Notes under the pieces: model-generated
The model's input: the letters and a program-made list of their open reading frames with translations, nothing else
Database searches by the model: none
What the model was told of the DNA's origin: nothing
Translations under genes and position numbers: made by a program
Shown: positions 3,947-34,062 of the stretch, in pieces
How the letters are laid out: each line of letters starts with the position of its first letter
Numbering within the stretch: position 1 is the first letter of the stretch
IMG/VR virus record: IMGVR_UViG_2609459792_000013
Length of the DNA stretch: 36,682 nucleotides
Strand: one strand, 5' to 3'
DNA from: a virus
Lineage: Duplodnaviria; Heunggongvirae; Uroviricota; Caudoviricetes

Positions 3947-4800
3947 GCACCATCCTGAAATGGGCGGGAAATAAAACTGCCATAATGTCCGAACTGAAAA
4001 AACATCTTCCTGCTGGCCCGCGACTGGTTGAACCTTTCGCGGGTTCCTGTGCTGTGATGATGGAGACGGATTATCCCAGCTATCTGGTTGCGGATATTAA
4101 TCCTGATTTAATCAACCTCTATAAAAAGGTTGCCGCTGATTGTGAATCGTTTATATCTCGCGCCAGAGTTTTATTTGAGATCGCAAACAGGGAGGTGGCT
4201 TATTACAACATAAGGCAGGAGTTTAATTACTCAACTGAAATTACTGATTTCATGAAAGCGGTATATTTCCTGTATCTCAATCGTCACGGTTACCGTGGTT
4301 TATGTCGCTATAACAAGAGCGGGCATTTCAACATTCCCTACGGTAATTATAAAAATCCGTATTTCCCTGAAAAAGAAATTCGCGCATTTGCAGAAAAGGC
4401 CCAGCGAGCAACGTTTATCTGCGCCAGCTTTGATGAAACGCTGGCGATGTTGAAGGCGGGGGATGTGGTGTATTGCGATCCGCCGTATGACGGTACGTTT
4501 TCCGGCTATCACACTGACGGCTTCACTGAAGATGACCAGTATCACCTGGCATCTGTTCTTGAACATCGGTCATCAGAAGGACATCCGGTCATTGTTTCTA
4601 ACAGTGACACATCCCTGATCCGTTCGCTGTATCGCAATTTTACTCACCACTACATCAAGGCAAAACGCAGCATCGGTGTGGCAGCTGGCGAGGGTAAATC
4701 AGCAACAGAAATCATTGCTGTTTCCGGGCCGCGCTGCTGGGTGGGATTTGATTATTCGCGTGGCGTGGATAGTTCTGCCGTGTACGGAGTACGTGCATGA
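3943..4800 (+). CDS. dam: DNA adenine methyltransferase (Dam-like, N6-adenine; probably GATC)
   Basis: ATG at 3943 ([11 protein letters not shown]). Motif [10 protein letters not shown] and motif IV DPPY; long collinear similarity to E. coli Dam as I recall it ([32 protein letters not shown]). Confidence 0.85.
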
Positions 4801-7211
4801 GTCATGCCGATATGAACAACTGCTGCGGCTTTAACGAAGCTGCCGCATCGTTCTCATGGAACAGCCCGAAAAAGGCCATTAACCCTTATCTGGACCCGGT
4901 GGAAGTTGCGCCGGTTTCTACGCTTTCAAACCTGATCACTCTGTATGCTGCCGATAACGAGCAGGAACAGCTGCGCCGTGAGGCGCTGAGTGATCAGGTC
5001 TGGGAGCGTTATTTCTTTAATGAATCCCGTGATCCTGTCCAGCGCGAAATGGAACAGGATAAGCTCATTAGTCGGGCAAAGCTGGCGCATGAGCAGCAGC
5101 GTTTTAATCCGGATATGGTCATTCTGGCGGACGTCAACGCCCAGCCTTCCCATATCAGCAAGCCGCTGATGCAACGTATTGAATACTTCAGCAGCCTGGG
5201 CAGGCCAAAGGCTTATTCCCGCTATTTACGTGAGACGATTAAGCCATGTTTGGAACGACTGGAGCATGTACGCGACAGTCAGCTATCTGCATCTTTTCGC
5301 TTTATGGCAAGCCATGAAGGGCTGGACGGCCTGCTGATCCTGCCTGAAATGAGTCAGGATCAGGTGAAACGCCTGTCCACCTTGGTAGCTGCGCATATGA
5401 GTATGTGCCTTGATGCCGCTTGTGGCGATTTGTATGCCACCGATGACGTTAAGCCAGAAGAAATCCGCAATACATGGGAAAGGGTGGCAGCGGAAACCCT
5501 GCGTCTGGATGTCATCCCGCCTGCGTTTGAGCAACTCCGTCGGAAAAGAAACCGCCGTAAACCCGTGCCCTATGAACTCATTCCGGGTTCGCTGGCGCGT
5601 ATGTTGTGCGCCGACTGGTGGTATCGGAAATTATGGAAGATGCGTTGCGAATGGCGGGAAGAGCAGTTGCGTGCAGTCTGCCTTGTCAGCAAAAAAGCAT
5701 CTCCTTATGTCAGCTATGAAGCCGTGATGCATAAACGTGAGCAGCGCCGTAAGTCGCTGGAGTTTTTCCGTTCTCATGAACTGGTGAACGAAGACGGCGA
5801 CACGCTGGACATGGAGGATGTGGTAAACGCCAGCAGCAGCAACCCAGCGCATCGCCGCAATGAGATGATGGCCTGTGTTAAAGGTCTGGAGCTTATCGCG
5901 GAAATGCGCGGTGACTGCGCCGTTTTCTACACCATCACCTGTCCGTCACGTTTCCATTCCACGCTAAACAACGGCAGGCCCAACCCAACCTGGACAAATG
6001 CGACGGTAAGACAAAGCAGTGATTATCTGGTCGGCATGTTTGCTGCATTTCGTAAGGCGATGCACAAAGCCGGATTGCGGTGGTATGGCGTGCGGGTGGC
6101 TGAGCCGCATCATGACGGTACAGTTCACTGGCACCTGTTGTGTTTTATGCGCAAAAAAGACCGCCGCACCATCACTGCATTACTGCGTAAGTTTGCCATC
6201 CGTGAAGACCGCGAGGAGCTGGGCAATAACACTGGGCCGCGCTTTAAGTCTGAGTTGATTAACCCGCGCAAAGGTACGCCAACAAGCTACATCGCGAAAT
6301 ACATCAGTAAGAACATTGACGGGCGTGGTCTGGCTGGCGAGATCAGCAAGGAAACGGGGAAATCCCTGCGTGATAATGCTGAATACGTTAATGCCTGGGC
6401 GTCTCTGCATCGTGTTCAGCAATTCCGCTTCTTTGGCATTCCGGGGCGTCAGGCTTACCGTGAACTGCGATTGCTGGCTGGTCAGGCGGCAAGGCAACAG
6501 GGGGACAAAAAAGCAGGTGCGCCGGTACTGGATAACCCGCGCCTTGATGCCATTCTGGCTGCTGCTGATGCTGGTTGTTTTGCCACCTACATCATGAAGC
6601 AGGGTGGCGTACTGGTTCCCCGCAAATATCACCTCATCAGAACTGCTTATGAAATCAACGAAGAGCCGACCGCCTATGGCGATCACGGCATTCGTATTTA
6701 TGGCATCTGGTCACCTATTGCAGAGGGCAAGATCTGCACTCATGCCGTGAAGTGGAAAATGGTTCGTAAGGCCGTTGACGTTCAGGAGGCGGCAGCCGAC
6801 CAGGGCGCTTGCGCCCCTTGGACTCGTGGCAATAACTGTCCCCTTGCTGAAAATTTGTACCAACAAGGGAAAGACAAATCAGCTGATGGAGATACCAGAA
6901 CGGATATCACCCGCATGGATGACAAGGAGTTGCACGATTACCTGCACAGTATGAGCAAAAAAGAGCGCCGGGAACTGGCAGCAAGGTTACGCCTGGTGAA
7001 ACCGAAACGGCGTAAAGACTACAAACAACGAATTACAGACCATCAGCGACTGCAGCTCGTGTATGAACTGAAGTCCAGGGGATTTGATGGCAGCGAGAAA
7101 GAGGTCGATTTACTGCTTCGCGGCGGCAGTATTCCGTCAGGAGCAGGCCTGCGTATCTTCTATCGGAACCAGCGTTTGCAGGAAGATGATAAGTGGCGAA
7201 ACCTGTATTAA
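4797..7211 (+). CDS. A: Rolling-circle replication initiator (P2 gpA-like)
   Basis: 804 aa; HUH-type motif [10 protein letters not shown] and Y-x3-Y active-site pair (YIAKY), as in P2 A. Start overlaps the Dam stop. Confidence 0.85.
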
Positions 7212-7303
7212 TTACGCGGGTTAACAATTCGTGCTCTTAATAATACCAGGCATATCAGGCTGATGAGCGTAAAAAAACGTTTTACATCAGTAAGATTATT
7301 ATA

Positions 7304-7323
7304 TACTGTAAATATAAACAGTG
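7304..7323 (+). promoter_or_regulatory. LexA (SOS) box overlapping a candidate promoter
   Basis: TACTGTAAATATAAACAGTG is a perfect CTGT-N8-ACAG with AT-rich spacer (CTGT 7306-7309, ACAG 7318-7321). -35 TTTACA (7281-7286) and, 17 bp later, -10 TACTGT (7304-7309) overlap it; AGGAGG RBS and ATG at 7364 follow. Confidence 0.65.
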
Positions 7324-7363
7324 GTTATGTATACAGTATTGCTTTGGTGTCATAGGAGGAAAG

Positions 7364-7552
7364 ATGCAGGACTATTTTTTGGAGTCTTTGAAGCTCCAGC
7401 GCATTGATTTTTTTCTTAAGCTTGTAGCGGCTAGTGAGTGTAGTGATGAAGAGAAGGGGCTGGCTCTGCAGTGGGTTTCAGAGCTGACTGATGAGTTGAT
7501 GGCGAAAATTCGTGCCCATGAATATAACCGTGTAATGGATCTTCCCGGTTAG
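7364..7552 (+). CDS. Small acidic protein (62 aa) under putative SOS control; Tum-like antirepressor position, function unknown
   Basis: Strong AGGAGG RBS; first gene after the LexA-box promoter; sits where 186 carries its LexA-controlled tum operon (A to cos). Confidence 0.6.
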   Translation: MQDYFLESLKLQRIDFFLKLVAASECSDEEKGLALQWVSELTDELMAKIRAHEYNRVMDLPG

Positions 7553-7563
7553 CAGCAGGGGCG

Positions 7564-7598
7564 TTGCTGGCGTGAGAACTAGATTCTCGCGTCAGCAA
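7564..7598 (+). other. 15-bp-stem hairpin between the 62-aa and 387-aa ORFs
   Basis: Arm 7564-7578 TTGCTGGCGTGAGAA pairs with arm 7584-7598 TTCTCGCGTCAGCAA (13 Watson-Crick + 2 G-U pairs), 5-nt loop; no following U-tract. Confidence 0.4.
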
Positions 7599-7722
7599 GG
7601 TCAACTAAGGATTGAAACAGAAAGCCCTTGAAAACAGTAGCAAGTTGCCTATTATCTACGCTGTATTTAATCGATGTCATTGGCTGTAATACCTTAAGTG
7701 ATATTGAAAGGCGGTGTGGGGA

Positions 7723-8883
7723 ATGGATCTGGCTAAAGTTGAAGAACGCGTCCGAAGAGTCATAGGGACAATGGAGTCTGCCGAGCTTGATGAATATTTT
7801 TGGGGTAAGCGCTCGGGTTTGGGAGACTCATTACCTCCGTATTATCTCGTTTATTTTCTTTTGGTAGATTTACTGAAATTTAAAAATCGTGGGGTTGATG
7901 AGAAGATTTCTTTTTCTATCCCAGTCCGGATTGATGGGACTGTCGTAATTATAGAACATCGTAAACTTGGTTTAGATATATTTATCAAGAGTGATGATGA
8001 TATAGAGCAAGCTAAAACTGTTTTGAGACATATTTGCGCAGGGGTTAAAGCTGCTACGAAATTTTTTGACTCGCTTGCAGACAATGCAGCAAAGACTTCA
8101 AATCTAAATGTTAATAACAATGCTAATTCTCTTTATGATAGGTTTTGCTATTTTTTAGAGCTATATAAACAGAAGCTTGATGAAGTTGCTGCTGGCCAAG
8201 AGTCTAAACTGGAAGTTGATAGTGAGTTTAAGTCTGATAATTTTTTCAGCCTGTTACAATCCACTTTTGAACAATCAAATAAGATAATTGAACTCCGAAG
8301 AGAGGCTATGTGGTTAGCAACGTCTGCAATTGAGTCATTTTTCAATTGGACCGAGCATGTTTTCATTCTTATTGCAATCTTGAAGGGTGAGATAAAAAAT
8401 GGGAATGATGTGGCTGATAAAGTTGGGAAAGAATGGGGGGAGAAATTCAAATTAGCCATTGATATTAACTCTTCCAGTCTAAAATCATTCTATGAACGTT
8501 TACTTATACTCAGAAAACAGGTGCGTAATTTTGTAGCCCATGGCGCCTTCGGTAAGGATGGGCAAGCATTGGAATTTCACTCAAGTGTAGGGGCTGTGCC
8601 ACTATTGCTGCCTCATCGAGAAAATAAAGAACGTTTCAAGTTTGGAAATGGTGTACATTTTTTGGCACCTGAAGCAATGCAATTAATTAACGATTTTCTT
8701 GAAAATTTGTGGCAGGGAGAACTGTCCCCAGCAAAAATTTATATTGAATCTGGATGTCCTTTAATACTATCTTACGTAACTAATGGAACCTATGCGGAGG
8801 CGATGAAATCAGAAAGGAATATGGACTTATTGGTTAATTACTTAACTCGTGAGATGGATAATGCCGCAAACATGGATTGGTAA
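7723..8883 (+). CDS. Cargo protein (387 aa), unknown function; candidate HEPN-like nuclease (R-N-x3-H motif)
   Basis: Long AT-rich ORF (ATG 7723; track start 7714 is a GTG) in the P2 tin/old slot. Motif LRKQVRNFVAHG matches the HEPN Rx4-6H signature; no Walker A motif seen. Confidence 0.75.
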   Translation: MDLAKVEERVRRVIGTMESAELDEYFWGKRSGLGDSLPPYYLVYFLLVDLLKFKNRGVDEKISFSIPVRIDGTVVIIEHRKLGLDIFIKSDDDIEQAKTVLRHICAGVKAATKFFDSLADNAAKTSNLNVNNNANSLYDRFCYFLELYKQKLDEVAAGQESKLEVDSEFKSDNFFSLLQSTFEQSNKIIELRREAMWLATSAIESFFNWTEHVFILIAILKGEIKNGNDVADKVGKEWGEKFKLAIDINSSSLKSFYERLLILRKQVRNFVAHGAFGKDGQALEFHSSVGAVPLLLPHRENKERFKFGNGVHFLAPEAMQLINDFLENLWQGELSPAKIYIESGCPLILSYVTNGTYAEAMKSERNMDLLVNYLTREMDNAANMDW

Positions 8884-9083
8884 ACTCTAGGTGCGGGTTA
8901 CAAACACACAAAAAATCTTCCTGAGTTAGGTGTTATCCCAACCCAAGGCTGTGTCAGGAAAACTTCATATGGCGCATGAGATCGCATGATAGTATGACGA
9001 TCGTTTTCGCTGATGCCAGCCTGAGCTGGCGGGCTGTTGCATATGTCATGCAGGCGCATGAAAACCACTGCATAAAGCGGGTA

Positions 9084-9102
9084 GGCGTGGCGGGGATACG
9101 AG
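9084..9102 (+). other. Putative cos (cohesive-end) site
   Basis: GGCGTGGCGGGGATACGAG: the first 13 nt match the 186/P2 cos 19-mer as I recall it (GGCGTGGCGGGGAAAGCAT / GGCGAGGCGGGGAAAGCAC). Lies in a GC-rich non-coding spacer upstream of the Q-P packaging genes. Confidence 0.5.
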
Positions 9103-9208
9103 CGCGCGGGATGACATAACAGATTGAATTGAAAAATATTGACTAAATGTAAAATGCGAAGGATATTTAGCCCCTCTATGAAGTTTTAGATATGGAAAAT
9201 GATAGGTT

Positions 9209-9499
9209 ATGAAAACGATATATAGCTATGATTACCAATACTTGCCTAAAGGGTCCACAAGACCAATTGATGACGGAGATATAGTAGGCTGTTCGTCAGA
9301 AGAAAATCCTTTTCTTCTACTTCCCAATGTAGGTGATTTTGTCTCTATATGTAATGACAATAGTCGGTCTTCGTTTAGTGGTATTGTTAAAACTAGATAT
9401 TTCACTTATACGAGAATAAGTGAGGAGTGCGTACAATGTTCAATTAATATTGTAGTTGCAGAATCTGATGTAGATTGGGGTACTCTTATTAAAGAATAA
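9209..9499 (+). CDS. Cargo protein (96 aa), cytoplasmic, unknown function
   Basis: AT-rich ORF between cos and Q; candidate promoter upstream (TTGACT at 9140-9145); no recognisable motif. Confidence 0.6.
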   Translation: MKTIYSYDYQYLPKGSTRPIDDGDIVGCSSEENPFLLLPNVGDFVSICNDNSRSSFSGIVKTRYFTYTRISEECVQCSINIVVAESDVDWGTLIKE

Positions 9500-9554
9500 T
9501 ATGGGGCGTCTGCGTAAGTGGGCGCTATTAAAATAAAATGGAATCTTGTAATGT

Positions 9555-10241
9555 ATGGTTAAATTTAATAATAACTTTGATTTTCCATTGGTAACAATAC
9601 TGACGGTGTTGCTATTTATATTGGCATATTTTTTTAAACTTGGTGAGGCCGTTTATTTTGGTTATCCAGCAATACTTATATCATTAGATTTAACGAGTGT
9701 TGCGAATATTTCTTTAAAGCTTTTTTTCTATTTTGGTAGTATTGTTATAGGTGTTTTTAATTTTATTTTGAATGATGGTGCGATTAAACTTAATAAAATT
9801 AAGTATGTTCTTTGGATTTTTATTGCCATAACAATATTTTCAGTTTTTTTAAGTTTTAAGAGGGGGGAGAAAGACTTAGTTAACTATCTTAATGGTGGTC
9901 TTTTTGGTATTTGTTCATGGTTGGTGGTAATGTCGTTGTTCAAAACATTTGAACGAAGTGGTGATTTGATTAATATAGATTTCGTATATGCCATATTAAC
10001 GGTTTTCTTTATGTCAGTTACTAGTTTTCTTGGAGGGATTAATTATCATAATCAGTTTGCATCTGTTCTATGGAAAACCTTGGATGGAAAAATAGTAGTT
10101 GGAGAATATAACGGCAGTTTTGTTTTAAAGAAATGCGTAGATGGCAAAGGGGTTTTTAGCTTTAGAGAGGTAAATGGTAGCGAATTTGTTGAGGTTGTAA
10201 ATTATGTGGAAGGGAAGTTTAATCCAAGGTGCAATAGATAA
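9555..10241 (+). CDS. Cargo membrane protein (228 aa), about five TM helices plus a roughly 60-aa C-terminal soluble domain
   Basis: Hydrophobic stretches LVTILTVLLFILAYFF, ISLKLFFYFGSIVIGVFNFIL, YVLWIFIAITIFSVFLSF, LFGICSWLVVMSLF, FVYAILTVFFMSVTSFLGGI; very AT-rich; ends 25 bp before the convergent Q stop. Confidence 0.7.
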   Translation: MVKFNNNFDFPLVTILTVLLFILAYFFKLGEAVYFGYPAILISLDLTSVANISLKLFFYFGSIVIGVFNFILNDGAIKLNKIKYVLWIFIAITIFSVFLSFKRGEKDLVNYLNGGLFGICSWLVVMSLFKTFERSGDLINIDFVYAILTVFFMSVTSFLGGINYHNQFASVLWKTLDGKIVVGEYNGSFVLKKCVDGKGVFSFREVNGSEFVEVVNYVEGKFNPRCNR

Positions 10242-10266: not shown

Positions 10267-11298
10267 TTATTCAAGTTTGTAGGCGTCAAAACTGATAACA
10301 GTTTTACCTAACCATATATTCAATTCTTCAAATCTTTTTTGCAATGATGTTAGTTCATTTCTTACAAAAACATTACTCGCCTTCTCCACATCCCCAAACC
10401 CTCCAACATTATTAGGCATAATCCCCATCATTTGCGGCGGCACGCGGTGCGCAGCCATCATGTCATCCCGGCTCACGTTCTTGATATTCAAAAATTCATC
10501 CTTTGCCGCGACTTCTGACAGAGGAATAATCTGAAGCCCGTCCTTTTTGCCGTTAGGCGAGTACATAAACAGGTTGCGGAAGTTGCCTGGACCTTTGGCG
10601 CTTTTCATCGCGTTGCGGAGGTTGTTCACATCTTCCTGGTTCTGCGCGGCGTCGGTCATATACATGATGAAGCCAGCATGACTGCCGTTAATGTAATACT
10701 TTCGACGGAACAGCGTGGCGGACTCATTGAGCAGGGCGGACGGAATGGCAGAAAGATAGCCGGGCAAGCCGTAGATCTCCTGGTTAATGTCCGGTTCCAT
10801 CAGATGAAAAATGCTGCCTTTCGTGAACTGATATGGCTGGGTTGTCATACCGTATTGCACAAACCAGTAGGTATCCAAGTCTAACCCGCGTCGGGTGTAT
10901 TTTGCCAGCGCAGGCTCAAGGGCGATAACTTCACCGAAGCGGTTCGTGCGTTTCTCCAAGTAGGCGTTACCAAAAACCAAATAGTCCTGCACAAAACGCG
11001 AAAAAGCCTGCTGGCTGAGCAGCGGGTGAGGGATGTAGGTGCTGGTCAAAATATTGCATTTCACCGCAATCGGTGAGCTGTGATGCACGGCGGCGCGGAA
11101 GGTTCGTGCCAGCCCGTCAAAGCTGACGGGCGGCTCATACCAGCGATCCATCTGTACGCATTCCACATAGTCCAGCAGTTCGCGGCGGTCCAGAACAGGA
11201 ACGGGATCACCGAAGCTGAATGCTTCGGCTGAAGTCTGGCTTTTATGCTGGTTCTGGTTCGTCGACGCAGCGCGGTTCTTCTTACTCTTTCCCATCAA
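10267..11298 (-). CDS. Q: Portal protein (P2 gpQ-like)
   Basis: 343 aa, recalled P2 Q similarity; operon with P on the minus strand, start overlapping the P stop. Confidence 0.85.
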   Translation of the reverse strand: MMGKSKKNRAASTNQNQHKSQTSAEAFSFGDPVPVLDRRELLDYVECVQMDRWYEPPVSFDGLARTFRAAVHHSSPIAVKCNILTSTYIPHPLLSQQAFSRFVQDYLVFGNAYLEKRTNRFGEVIALEPALAKYTRRGLDLDTYWFVQYGMTTQPYQFTKGSIFHLMEPDINQEIYGLPGYLSAIPSALLNESATLFRRKYYINGSHAGFIMYMTDAAQNQEDVNNLRNAMKSAKGPGNFRNLFMYSPNGKKDGLQIIPLSEVAAKDEFLNIKNVSRDDMMAAHRVPPQMMGIMPNNVGGFGDVEKASNVFVRNELTSLQKRFEELNIWLGKTVISFDAYKLE

Positions 11299-18195: not shown

Positions 18196-18631
18196 ACTGC
18201 AGAAGGTGGACGACTGGCTGAGTGCTTTGCTGGCGAATCTGGAGCCAGCCGCAAGAAGCCGCATGATGCGCCAGCTGGCGCAGGAACTGCGCCGGACACA
18301 GCAGCAGAACATCAGGATGCAGCGCAATCCAGATGGCAGCAGTTATGAACCGCGCAGGGCAACAGCACGCAGCAAAAAGGGGCACATCAAACGTCAGATG
18401 TTTACAAAGCTGCGCACCTCTAAATACCTTCAAACTACCGCCAGCGCCGATTCTGCCAGCGTGCAGTTTGAAGGTAAGGTGCAGCGCATTGCACGCGTTC
18501 ACCATTACGGCCTGCGTGATCGCGTCAGTCGTCATAGTTTTAAAGTGAAATATGCGCAACGGCGTCTTCTAGGCGTTAATAAAGACATAGAAATTTGGGT
18601 TCGAAACACACTGAAGCACTGGCTTGTTTAG
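18188..18631 (+). CDS. S: Tail completion protein S (gpS-like)
   Basis: 147 aa, GTG start overlapping the R stop; position as in P2. Confidence 0.8.
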   Translation: MAELQKVDDWLSALLANLEPAARSRMMRQLAQELRRTQQQNIRMQRNPDGSSYEPRRATARSKKGHIKRQMFTKLRTSKYLQTTASADSASVQFEGKVQRIARVHHYGLRDRVSRHSFKVKYAQRRLLGVNKDIEIWVRNTLKHWLV

Positions 18632-18645
18632 TGCTTCAGTGTGTT
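18605..18645. other. Perfect 16-bp inverted repeat (9-nt loop) at the convergent S / cargo-gene junction
   Basis: AACACACTGAAGCACT (18605-18620) and AGTGCTTCAGTGTGTT (18630-18645) are exact reverse complements; spans the S stop codon; no clear U-tract on either strand. Confidence 0.4.
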
Positions 18646-18656
18646 AAAACAGAAGA

Positions 18657-20408
18657 CTATTGGTTGAATATGAAGCTGATAATATTTTCAGGAGTGAGCT
18701 CTATGTTTTTTTTATTAAGTTTTTGAATGTACATTTTATATTTCATTTCAACGTTTCGGAAGCCTTGCGCAACAGAAAGTATTTCTACAGGATGAGATGA
18801 AAGTTTTATTAAGGAGTTAATGACTGTATCTAGGTAGATGTGAGCATGTTCAACTAAAACATTTGTTTTTGATGGGGTTTTTCCAGTGTGAACTATCAAG
18901 TTTCTAGTTCTATATATTCTCCTAATTTGCCAGTTGATTCTTTCTGCATGATTTTTAAGTGCCTGATACATAGTATCAGTTGAGGAAATTAAATTGCTAA
19001 TATATTCAAATCTCTCTTTCAATAACGGAAATTGTGATAGTTCTATCTTAAACTGATTGATGCTAGGGGCATGTTCTTGCGAAGCAACAAGAATTACAAA
19101 TGATTTGGCTGCATCGCTATCTCCAATTAGTCTTAGAAGTGACATGGTTCGAGGATGATTCCATCGTTGTAAGTCTTTTATAAGATTCCTTACTAGGTCT
19201 TCAATATAATTCAGGTTTAAAAATGGTGTTAATGAATTAACGATATGTTCTATCGTGGATTGTTCTTCTTTTTTTGATTCGTCGGGGATGAGTGATTCAA
19301 TAGCAATCCATAAATTTAAAAGCTGATTTTCTACAGCATTTGTCTGTAGTGCCATTGAATGTAATTGTACACTTCTTATGAATTTATTGAAAGAATCCTT
19401 GCGCATTCTGAAATTATTCATGAATTGTTCGAGTCTTCTGCTTGCGTGTTCCTGAACCAGATCCTTGCAGCGGTGCATTGGGTTTATGCTGCTTCTTATA
19501 TTGATTTTTTCACCATTTTCACTAACTACAATGTTCTCTGCAGACCATGATGCTTCTTGCTTATGATGATAGAGAGAAAGCAAAGTTGATGCGAGCTTTA
19601 AGTTTCTTTCAGCTACCCTTCTAGCCGTGAATGGATCAAGTGCTTTAACATGCTTAACTAAAATAGTTCGTTGTTCATGATTATCGAAGAAATCTGTTTC
19701 ATTAATATTTTCGGGGGTTTCAAGAACAACCTCAATTTCTAATTGTGATAAGCATGGAGTAATATAACTAAAAGATTTGTCAGCATTGAAATAAACTGAA
19801 TATTCTTGTGTCTCTGAGGGGATGTTCTCTAGGAATGTAATAATCTCTTCATTTGAACTGATCTCTCGTTCTCTTTGGAAGAAATGTTTTTTTAGACTTT
19901 CCATCAAATATTCTTGACTTAATCCTTTTGATATTAGATGGGTAATCAACAGTCTTGTAAACTTTCGAATTTTATTTGGGTTGTATTCTGAAGTTATTGT
20001 AGAGCAAAGTTCACTGATGAGTTTGCTTTCATAATTACCAACATTAAGTTGAACTCTCAGTAATTCAAGAGTTATTTTTAGATTTTTATTTCCTAACTGA
20101 TTGTTTTGGAGTTGATCTAAAAATGAACCTAAAGGGTTTTTTAGAAGACTGATTGCGATGTCATCATTCTTAATATTTTTAGTTAATTCGTCAATGACGT
20201 GGGATATATGTGCGGGGCTTATGTTGCCTTTTTCTATATCATCGATTGTTGATATTGCTTCTATACATAAACTTGGAGTGTTCATTATAGAAGGTTTATA
20301 TGTACTATGGGTGTAATCAAAGAGAAGTTCCTCCATTAACTCGGTGAAATAAATAAGCGCAGTGCATTGTTCAATATGATTCCAGTTGTGTAGTCTTCTA
20401 AATTTCAT
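18657..20408 (-). CDS. Cargo protein (583 aa) antisense to the late operon in the S-V moron slot; candidate HEPN-like abortive-infection protein
   Basis: Very AT-rich ORF; ATG at 20408 (MKFRRLHNWNH...). The track TTG start at 20528 would overlap gpV and is rejected. C-terminal motif IRRIYRTRNLIVHTGK matches R-N-x3-H-x-G; no Walker A motif. Confidence 0.8.
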   Translation of the reverse strand: MKFRRLHNWNHIEQCTALIYFTELMEELLFDYTHSTYKPSIMNTPSLCIEAISTIDDIEKGNISPAHISHVIDELTKNIKNDDIAISLLKNPLGSFLDQLQNNQLGNKNLKITLELLRVQLNVGNYESKLISELCSTITSEYNPNKIRKFTRLLITHLISKGLSQEYLMESLKKHFFQREREISSNEEIITFLENIPSETQEYSVYFNADKSFSYITPCLSQLEIEVVLETPENINETDFFDNHEQRTILVKHVKALDPFTARRVAERNLKLASTLLSLYHHKQEASWSAENIVVSENGEKINIRSSINPMHRCKDLVQEHASRRLEQFMNNFRMRKDSFNKFIRSVQLHSMALQTNAVENQLLNLWIAIESLIPDESKKEEQSTIEHIVNSLTPFLNLNYIEDLVRNLIKDLQRWNHPRTMSLLRLIGDSDAAKSFVILVASQEHAPSINQFKIELSQFPLLKERFEYISNLISSTDTMYQALKNHAERINWQIRRIYRTRNLIVHTGKTPSKTNVLVEHAHIYLDTVINSLIKLSSHPVEILSVAQGFRNVEMKYKMYIQKLNKKNIELTPENIISFIFNQ

Positions 20409-20452
20409 ATTAATACCTTGTTTTGTGAAGCTTGAATTTACCTTTAGCGCAT

Positions 20453-20470
20453 TGTTTGTTGCTTCATACA
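20453..20470. promoter_or_regulatory. TGT-N12-ACA dyad between the cargo gene and V (late-promoter activator site candidate)
   Basis: TGTTTGTTGCTTCATACA, with flanking extended symmetry TGTTTG...CAAACA. Centre is 55.5 bp from the V ATG (20517) and 53.5 bp from the cargo ATG (20408). Confidence 0.45.
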
Positions 20471-20516
20471 AACATGGTTTGTTTGTGATCTCAAGTGTTT
20501 GATTAAGAATTTGAGA

Positions 20517-33827: not shown

Positions 33828-33907
33828 CGCTGCCGCCATTTTGTCGCCATCGTTAAAAAACAGTGTTTCTAACATCATGATTTTAAACAGCTTAAATTTC
33901 AGGCAAC

Positions 33908-33950
33908 AAAAAACCCATCAACCTTGAACCGAAATGGCGGGGTTGATGGG
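33908..33950 (-). terminator. Rho-independent terminator candidate for the minus strand (downstream of ybjL)
   Basis: Perfect 10-bp stem CCCATCAACC / GGTTGATGGG (33914-33923 and 33941-33950) with a 17-nt loop, followed on the minus strand by a run of six T (plus-strand AAAAAA at 33908-33913). Confidence 0.5.
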
Positions 33951-34062
33951 CTCCACAAAATGGGGACATCAAAGAAAAGCAGTGGCACTAATTAAGACTG
34001 ATGCCCTGCGGAAAAGTTCTGCGGTTGTGCAAAAAAATTTCATTTTCAGGGCAACTTCAGTT

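Follow-up and report, generated by a model that had tools for sequence, protein, structure and literature searches.

The window analysed in this work, a stretch of 36,682 nt deposited as the IMG/VR record IMGVR_UViG_2609459792_000013, is a Fels-2-like prophage of the P2 family (Peduoviridae), and the present report deals with two genes located in it between the replication endonuclease gene A (4797–7211, plus strand) and the cohesive-end site cos (9084–9102, no strand assigned). Both open reading frames (ORFs), a 62-aa one at 7364–7552 and a larger one ending at 8883, are on the plus strand at the positions given in an earlier note on this DNA, and the coordinates of gene A and cos place the pair in the gene A–cos slot, the P2 hotspot to which that note had assigned it. 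The cos sequence, GGCGTGGCGGGGATACGAG, which ends the slot, is 19 nt long, and its first 13 nt correspond to the annotated cos of phage 186 (bases 1–19 of the 186 record); the right end of 186 can be aligned as far as window position 9083. The sequence is kept in the window, in the prophages of Escherichia coli L725 and E. coli S163-2 and in Fels-2, and about 150 bp around it are conserved in the window, the two E. coli prophages and Fels-2, with the flanking DNA differing on both sides. The GC content is 0.52–0.58 in the prophage backbone and 0.29–0.44 between positions 7000 and 10500.

The larger gene, hereafter the cargo gene, starts with a GTG at 7714 in the mechanical ORF list, which gives a product of 389 aa. 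As its homologues start with M-D-L and the RefSeq start of a near-identical E. coli gene is the equivalent ATG, the true start is taken to be the ATG at 7723, so that the gene occupies 7723–8883 on the plus strand and codes for a protein of 386 aa and not of 387 aa as previously counted. Its AT-rich composition had been recognized correctly, the GC content being 37.6% compared to 53% in gene A.

The protein contains the stretch LRKQVRNFVAHG with the residues R268-N269-F-V-A-H273, whose codons are located at 8524–8541 on the plus strand; this R-N-x3-H motif, already pointed out in the earlier note, is the candidate HEPN catalytic motif. It is present in all 120 first-round homologues, and R268, N269 and H273 are invariant columns in an alignment of 117 sequences (alignment A2) with identity values down to 41%, while R-[ND]-x3-H is found in 71 of the 74 full-length remote representatives. 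The invariant residues also include K61, K81, E211, W238, K241 and G274, and the C-terminus of the family has a conserved N-M-D-W. The activity of HEPN ribonucleases is metal-independent and depends on the R and H residues, and the invariance of R-N-x3-H-G within the family argues for catalysis.

The family is large, uncurated and horizontally scattered. There are 1,245 matches among clusters defined at 90% identity, and at 50% identity the search returned 1,011 clusters at E ≤ 1e-3, of which 350 reached E ≤ 1e-30; among the 150 matches listed, nearly all the near-full-length members have a length of about 380–400 aa and the same architecture. A total of 239 loci were found in 185,579 species genomes (one genome per species), with Alpha-, Beta- and Gammaproteobacteria, Nitrospirota, Acidobacteriota, Chloroflexota, Bacteroidota, Cyanobacteria, Chlorobiota, Actinomycetota and Saccharibacteria represented among the 80 loci listed. 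A literature search for the RefSeq accession WP_032248694 yielded no papers.

The AlphaFold2 model of the 386-aa protein (predicted local distance difference test score, pLDDT, of 90.4 and predicted template modelling score, pTM, of 0.84) contains an N-terminal alpha+beta domain covering residues 1 to about 130 (nt 7723–8121), with helices 3–14 and 40–50, a three-stranded sheet at 62–88 and helices within 91–124, and a helical HEPN-like domain from about residue 134 to residue 386, with long helices 134–167, 174–220 and 251–273 and further helices at 315–382. The R-N-x3-H motif is located at the C-terminal end of helix 251–273. The best fold match of the model is the abortive-infection protein AbiA, followed mostly by HEPN toxins, and the part of AbiA that is matched is presumably its HEPN domain. 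The tentative HEPN call made earlier thus gains from the invariance of the R-x4-6-H-type motif and from the all-alpha, up-and-down helical bundle fold, but it does not extend to membership in a curated Pfam HEPN family: the Csx1_HEPN profile matches residues 219–279 below threshold (E = 0.037, 14.9 bits against a cut-off of 23) and does so in only one of the 117 members. Single-sequence and profile searches of the Protein Data Bank (PDB) gave only noise.

Residues 274–314 (window positions 8542–8664), next to the motif, are modelled as a loop with pLDDT values of 54–66, yet their sequence, HGAFGKxGxAxxFHSxxGAVP, is strongly conserved, with G274, F276, G277, H286, G290, A291 and P293 being invariant. 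This loop may become ordered only upon oligomerization or ligand binding and may be a candidate regulatory or substrate-binding element beside the motif. For the N-terminal domain, the fold matches are only generic; it was also considered as a PD-(D/E)xK nuclease, and this assignment was rejected as the domain does not show the restriction-endonuclease-like alpha-beta-beta-beta-alpha-beta fold.

The cargo gene is the sole ORF of note in a cassette spanning 7541 to about 8975 (plus strand), and it is the only cargo between cos and the 62-aa gene, which is described below as tumA. The left junction of the cassette lies in the last tumA codons and the right one in the conserved cos-flanking DNA. 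Similarity to Fels-2 and Klebsiella phages stops at query base 329, which is window position 7540, and the TumA protein accordingly ends in ...DLPG in the window and in L103, a contig with a diverged P2-like backbone from IMG/VR, compared to ...DVIN in Fels-2. The cassette, which takes the place of the dinI/tumB gene and the cargo of Fels-2, has a GC content of 39% against 53% in the backbone. It was detected in 10 of 5,426 complete E. coli genomes, with at least 99.3% identity and every time in the same slot, as well as in four IMG/VR contigs, and it is 96% identical in L103.

In P2, the region from gene A to the portal gene Q (located at 10267–11298 on the minus strand in the window) is an experimentally supported defence hotspot (PMC9122126, PMC9519451), and according to a 2026 survey many unannotated genes of the P2/P4 hotspots are functional or predicted defences (PMC13586616). 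The location of the cargo gene inside this hotspot makes it a candidate defence gene by context, and so do the surroundings of several of its homologues. The homologue from Klebsiella (61% identity) follows hsdR-hsdM-hsdS and a gene for a 1,093-aa helicase in an integrase-bounded island, starting 13 bp past this ResIII/DEAD helicase gene (loci L005–L010), and a homologue with 66% identity adjoins a RES-domain gene in a CP4-57-like island. Others are found after hipBA amid conjugative-transfer genes, after an HNH gene, or alone among housekeeping genes. Two viral contigs that are not P2-like also carry homologues, one of them adjoining an AAA_15/AAA_21 ATPase and a Cthe_2314-type HEPN protein near baseplate genes, the other immediately following a prophage integrase gene.

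At 70 species-level loci, the two ORFs closest to the homologue on either side were compared by all-against-all BLAST. No neighbour family recurred beyond closely related genomes, no tumA-like partner was present in the loci examined, and the upstream regions of the homologues showed no conservation. The immediate neighbours include a Mokosh MkoA-like protein, two DRT UG17 proteins, two GajB-like UvrD helicases, a type ISP restriction protein and AbiJ, together with resolvases, transposases, urocanase, PrmA and transporters. Taken together, these contexts point to an accessory gene that stands alone, moves horizontally and prefers the cargo sites of mobile elements. This pattern agrees with a role in defence or abortive infection and rules out an obligate partner. 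A large NTPase precedes the homologue at a minority of the loci: the upstream ORF at L071 has the same size as the 1,093-aa helicase, a 1,112-aa Mokosh MkoA-like protein is located 114 bp from the homologue at L021, and upstream ORFs of 1,624 aa and 770 aa are present at L031 and L075, respectively. The HEPN protein may therefore be used elsewhere as an effector module of multi-gene systems.

Alternatively, the gene could be a mobile accessory gene whose product, built on a HEPN-like scaffold, acts neither in defence nor as an RNase, for example a nucleotide- or ligand-binding regulator, an anti-defence factor or a hitch-hiking selfish element. HEPN-fold proteins are not all nucleases, and the generic fold matches of the N-terminal domain, the lack of a match to any defence model and the many homologues residing amid housekeeping genes are all compatible with such a role. 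It is at odds, however, with the strict invariance of R-N-x3-H-G in the family and with its recurrence in mobile-element cargo sites, beside restriction, helicase and Abi genes and in a defence-rich slot, and we consider this explanation to be on the unlikely side.

The smaller gene (7364–7552, plus strand) is preceded, at a distance of 5 nt, by a strong Shine-Dalgarno sequence (AGGAGG) and codes for a 62-aa protein that is acidic, as previously noted (isoelectric point 4.6, with 12 D+E compared to 7 K+R). The protein had been left unrecognized, but PHROG profiles allow it to be assigned to the Fels-2 STM2728/PSP3 TumA type: it matches phrog_698 (E = 4.7e-36), phrog_8554 (3.7e-8) and phrog_1993 (0.0025), and 186 Tum matches the same profiles via its N-terminal 44–61 residues (phrog_1993 at 1e-22, phrog_8554 at 1.4e-11 and phrog_698 at 2.4e-5), while PSP3 TumA itself belongs to phrog_1993 (2.7e-32). 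BLASTP comparison of the 62-aa protein with 186 Tum and PSP3 TumA revealed no similarity, so the link exists at the PHROG profile level only; a MAFFT alignment shows a common hydrophobic helix and a Cys followed by an A-L-x-[WL]-[VI] pattern. The protein is 95% identical to its Fels-2 counterpart over residues 1–60, and a 329-bp stretch, which begins at the end of gene A and reaches into the last tumA codons, is 93–94% identical to Fels-2, Cartapus and many Klebsiella P2-like phages.

The gene order points in the same direction, as the 62-aa ORF is located just 3′ of gene A, like its counterparts in Fels-2, PSP3 and 186. In Fels-2, STM2728 is followed by a DinI-family gene; in PSP3, tumA ("UV induction of prophage") and tumB are annotated at the equivalent place, and in 186 the same place is annotated with the promoter p95, a LexA site, a fused tum gene, the partial terminator t95a, orf97 and the terminator t95b. 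The window protein (62 aa) is similar in size to PSP3 TumA (60 aa). The DinI-like partner is fused in 186, separate as tumB in PSP3 and Fels-2, and, unusually, absent in the window phage, where no DinI-like ORF was detected between 7552 and cos. Because of the PHROG cross-matches, the synteny, the LexA box described below and the homology to Fels-2, the gene at 7364–7552 is predicted to be a LexA-controlled antirepressor gene of the tumA type, with STM2728 of Fels-2 as its orthologue and with remote homology to PSP3 TumA and to the N-terminal half of 186 Tum. It was reported that the tum gene is split in Fels-2 and PSP3, with the upstream half being the antirepressor (PMC3121763), and that the induction of a P2-like phage of E. 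coli HS is abolished in delta-tum and lexA(Ind-) mutants (PMC12055606).

Upstream of tumA there are two overlapping LexA boxes, neither of them assigned to a strand. Box 1, TACTGTAAATATAAACAGTG (7304–7323), has a perfect CTGT-N8-ACAG core, CTGTAAATATAAACAG, at 7306–7321 and as a 20-mer differs from the consensus TACTGTATATATATACAGTA by three mismatches. Box 2, CAGTGGTTATGTATACAGTA (7319–7338), is weaker, with five mismatches to the 20-mer consensus, its right half-site being perfect and the left one degenerate; together with box 1 it makes up the inverted repeat I3. Two perfect cores were found in the window compared to 0.55 expected, with at least two occurring in 8 of 100 shuffles. Both boxes are conserved in the diverged backbone of L103 as well as in Fels-2, where box 1 shows no difference from the window. 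A putative SOS promoter is located at 7281–7307 on the plus strand and consists of the −35 hexamer TTTACA (7281–7286) and the −10 hexamer TATACT (7302–7307) separated by a 15-nt spacer. The consensus scan, which requires a spacer of 16–18 nt, missed this promoter, and its hexamers were inferred by reading the sequence. The −10 hexamer overlaps box 1 in the same layout as in the annotated p95/LexA site of 186, and the predicted LexA operator thus overlaps the promoter of the 62-aa gene, as in 186 tum, PSP3 tumA and Fels-2 STM2728 with their LexA box over the promoter after gene A. The previous placement of the first gene of the pair under a LexA box therefore agrees with both the operator core and the Tum/TumA homology.

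Another LexA box, TACTGTATATATAAACAGTG, is present at 1083–1102, about 30 bp upstream of the start of the minus-strand integrase gene, and with its perfect core and two mismatches it is better than box 1. It lies at the border between int-proximal DNA common to Klebsiella P2-like phages (1001–1111) and a variable low-GC stretch (1112–1460) which carries a 63-aa minus-strand ORF.

A gap of 170 bp separates the tumA stop (7552) from the ATG at 7723. Directly after the stop there is a 15-bp RNA hairpin on the plus strand (7564–7598) that has no U tract and was not called by the terminator scan; its role may be weak termination, RNA processing or stabilization, and one of its stem pairs is broken in L103 without compensation. 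The RNA fold of 7540–7730 has a z-score of −3.56. The hairpin is followed by a sigma-70-like site with 10 of 12 matches, TTGAAA-16-TATTAT (7628–7655, plus strand), which is a candidate for the cargo gene's own promoter; since promoter and terminator counts are not above the shuffle expectation, this internal promoter call is weak. The scan found no plus-strand intrinsic terminator between the two genes, which makes SOS control of the cargo gene plausible. An 11-bp hairpin located after the cargo gene (8920–8947, no strand assigned) scores as a terminator for the minus strand only. A long-range pairing predicted at 7649–7725 covers the Shine-Dalgarno sequence and the start region of the cargo gene, and all known copies of this region are at least 96% identical; judging by the fold prediction, the pairing may hold back the translation of a protein that is potentially toxic. 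A type III RNA antitoxin was also considered and rejected as there are no tandem repeats.

This arrangement bears on the suggestion that the two genes form a toxin–antitoxin-like pair, in which the acidic 62-aa protein neutralizes a 386-aa HEPN toxin. The genes are adjacent and co-oriented, a small acidic protein is encoded beside a putative RNase, and the 62-aa ORF even has a weak, sub-threshold match to a MafI immunity protein (E = 0.037, 13.8 bits against a cut-off of 31). On the other side, the 170-bp gap holds a hairpin and no repeats resembling an RNA antitoxin. Moreover, the 62-aa ORF is the conserved tumA gene, which occurs with many different cargos: its promoter and coding segment is present in about 1,100 of the 5,426 complete E. 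coli genomes, and tumA homologues are found in 66 phage records. The 386-aa family, known from about 240 species, has no conserved neighbour at the 70 loci and never a tumA-like partner. We regard a toxin–antitoxin pair as highly improbable. The other suggestion of the earlier note, an antirepressor together with a defence or toxin gene, is upheld for the first gene as an antirepressor but not for a functional pair or module, as the two genes occur independently.

The junction between tumA and the cargo gene is also relevant to the question of when the cargo acts. It may be supposed that the 386-aa HEPN protein belongs to the SOS operon and works only after DNA damage as an induction-linked weapon or helper, crippling co-induced prophages or satellites or shutting off host RNA for the benefit of its own lytic cycle, with no guarding of the uninduced lysogen. 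The cargo gene is co-oriented with the LexA-controlled promoter and lies directly 3′ of it with no plus-strand terminator between, and the tumA–cargo junction has been kept in two diverged backbones. In 186, orf97 occupies the equivalent slot and is annotated in the SOS operon behind a partial terminator, which by analogy makes read-through of the SOS promoter into the 386-aa gene plausible; in addition, plasmid-expressed orf97 is annotated as blocking 186 infection. Nevertheless, the geometry of the slot alone explains the junction, homologues elsewhere have no SOS context, and a strong hairpin and a promoter-like site are located between the genes, so an exclusively induction-linked role appears rather improbable.

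The reading preferred here, to which we assign a probability of about 0.6, is that the locus combines two independent units, namely a LexA-controlled tumA gene belonging to the phage backbone and a stand-alone HEPN ribonuclease of 386 aa that was acquired as cargo and serves for defence or abortive infection. In the first unit, the LexA-repressed promoter (boxes at 7304–7338) would drive tumA; upon DNA damage, LexA cleavage would de-repress TumA, which would inactivate the CI-type prophage repressor and let the Fels-2-like prophage enter lytic growth. The antirepressor activity and the LexA dependence are drawn from work on 186, PSP3, Fels-2 and DuoHS (PMC3121763, PMC12055606), and the support found for this unit in the window consists of the boxes, the synteny and the homology. 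As for the second unit, the single 386-aa gene would have entered the hotspot by an exchange of cassettes whose left junction lies in the last tumA codons. Through abortive infection, its product would guard the lysogen against other phages, like HepS, Tha and AbiA-CTD-type proteins. The enzyme would be kept inactive at first and become active when the N-terminal domain and/or the loop 274–314 senses a phage cue; acting probably as a dimer or tetramer, it would then use R268/H273 to cleave tRNA, rRNA or mRNA. It would probably be expressed from both read-through of the SOS promoter and its own promoter.

Several observations weigh against this two-unit reading. Searches with the 386-aa protein gave no match to a model in NCBIfam, PADLOC or PHROG and none above threshold in Pfam, and the idea that the slot holds a known anti-phage system is not borne out, as neither of the two proteins has a match at E ≤ 1 in PADLOC-DB v2 (tin, old, PD-, Rst- and PDC- families). 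A tblastn search of 50,697 deposited phage genomes revealed no homologue of the cargo protein, and a Foldseek comparison of its model with the PDB returned nothing at E ≤ 0.001. Many of the genes neighbouring its homologues are housekeeping genes, and the defence enrichment of these loci is an informal estimate. As far as expression is concerned, the hairpin at 7564–7598 may terminate or process the transcript, and a constitutively SOS-induced RNase could hurt the phage's own lytic cycle, which implies that the regulation is more complex than simple read-through.

Single-protein HEPN defences of prophages have been described recently, namely HepS of Gifsy-1 (PMC13043305) and Tha of S. aureus prophages (PMC11087260), and by analogy the 386-aa protein is proposed to work like these two. 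It shows no sequence relation to any solved structure, which sets it apart from HepS, Tha and the C-terminal HEPN domain of AbiA (PDB 8oz7); its N-terminal alpha+beta domain is different, and it has no reverse-transcriptase-like polymerase domain. The toxins RnlA and LsoA give a marginal fold match without sequence similarity, and there is no RnlB/LsoB-like antitoxin gene at the locus. With regard to position, the cargo gene shares the gene A–cos hotspot with tin/old of P2 and orf97 of 186. The latter gene is likewise located 3′ of tum, in the SOS operon, but its product belongs to phrog_3403, and the 386-aa protein is unrelated to all of these cargo products.

Further cargo is found outside the gene A–cos slot. 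A second slot, between cos and gene Q (9209–10241), carries a 96-aa ORF belonging to phrog_12676 and a 228-aa multi-transmembrane ORF with a GC content of 0.30 belonging to phrog_35408, both families having no known function. The prophage of E. coli L725 shares the HEPN cassette but has three other genes in its cos–Q slot, including one for a STAS-like protein, so the two slots swap independently. A 2-kb low-GC block at 18501–20500 (0.32–0.35 inside a late-gene region of 0.55–0.60) may be another cargo site of the P2-like type. From about 33.5 kb onward the window consists of host DNA, marked by a full-length match to the RybB small RNA gene of the host chromosome at the prophage end (33905–33983, minus strand, 105 bits); this is the sole match to a known RNA family in the window, and none was found in 7200–9250.

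The tumA half of the locus is the already known biology of inducible P2-like phages, to which the window adds only that the DinI-like tumB gene can be lost. The cargo gene stands for about 1,000 clusters (at 50% identity) from many phyla, a family that is unstudied and uncurated. Its confident HEPN-like model, the invariant catalytic-type motif and the validated hotspot together make it a well-defined candidate for a new abortive-infection system consisting of one gene, in which the sensor domain might be new as well. Such a cargo is a good candidate that would not surprise a specialist; less expected is the presence of a hotspot cargo directly behind a LexA-controlled promoter, as neither SOS nor LexA is mentioned in the two papers on the P2 hotspots that were searched for it. 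It is conceivable, if rather doubtful, that in the 186/Fels-2 branch the cargo of the first hotspot is wired behind the LexA-controlled tum promoter in general, the HEPN protein being an SOS-boosted inter-prophage weapon or an induction-coupled RNase and not a constitutive guard. If the cargo is LexA-coupled, the question arises whether the defence cargo of 186/Fels-2-type phages is timed to prophage induction, and under SOS-boosted expression the 386-aa effector would come on at the very moment at which all co-resident prophages and satellites are roused by DNA damage.

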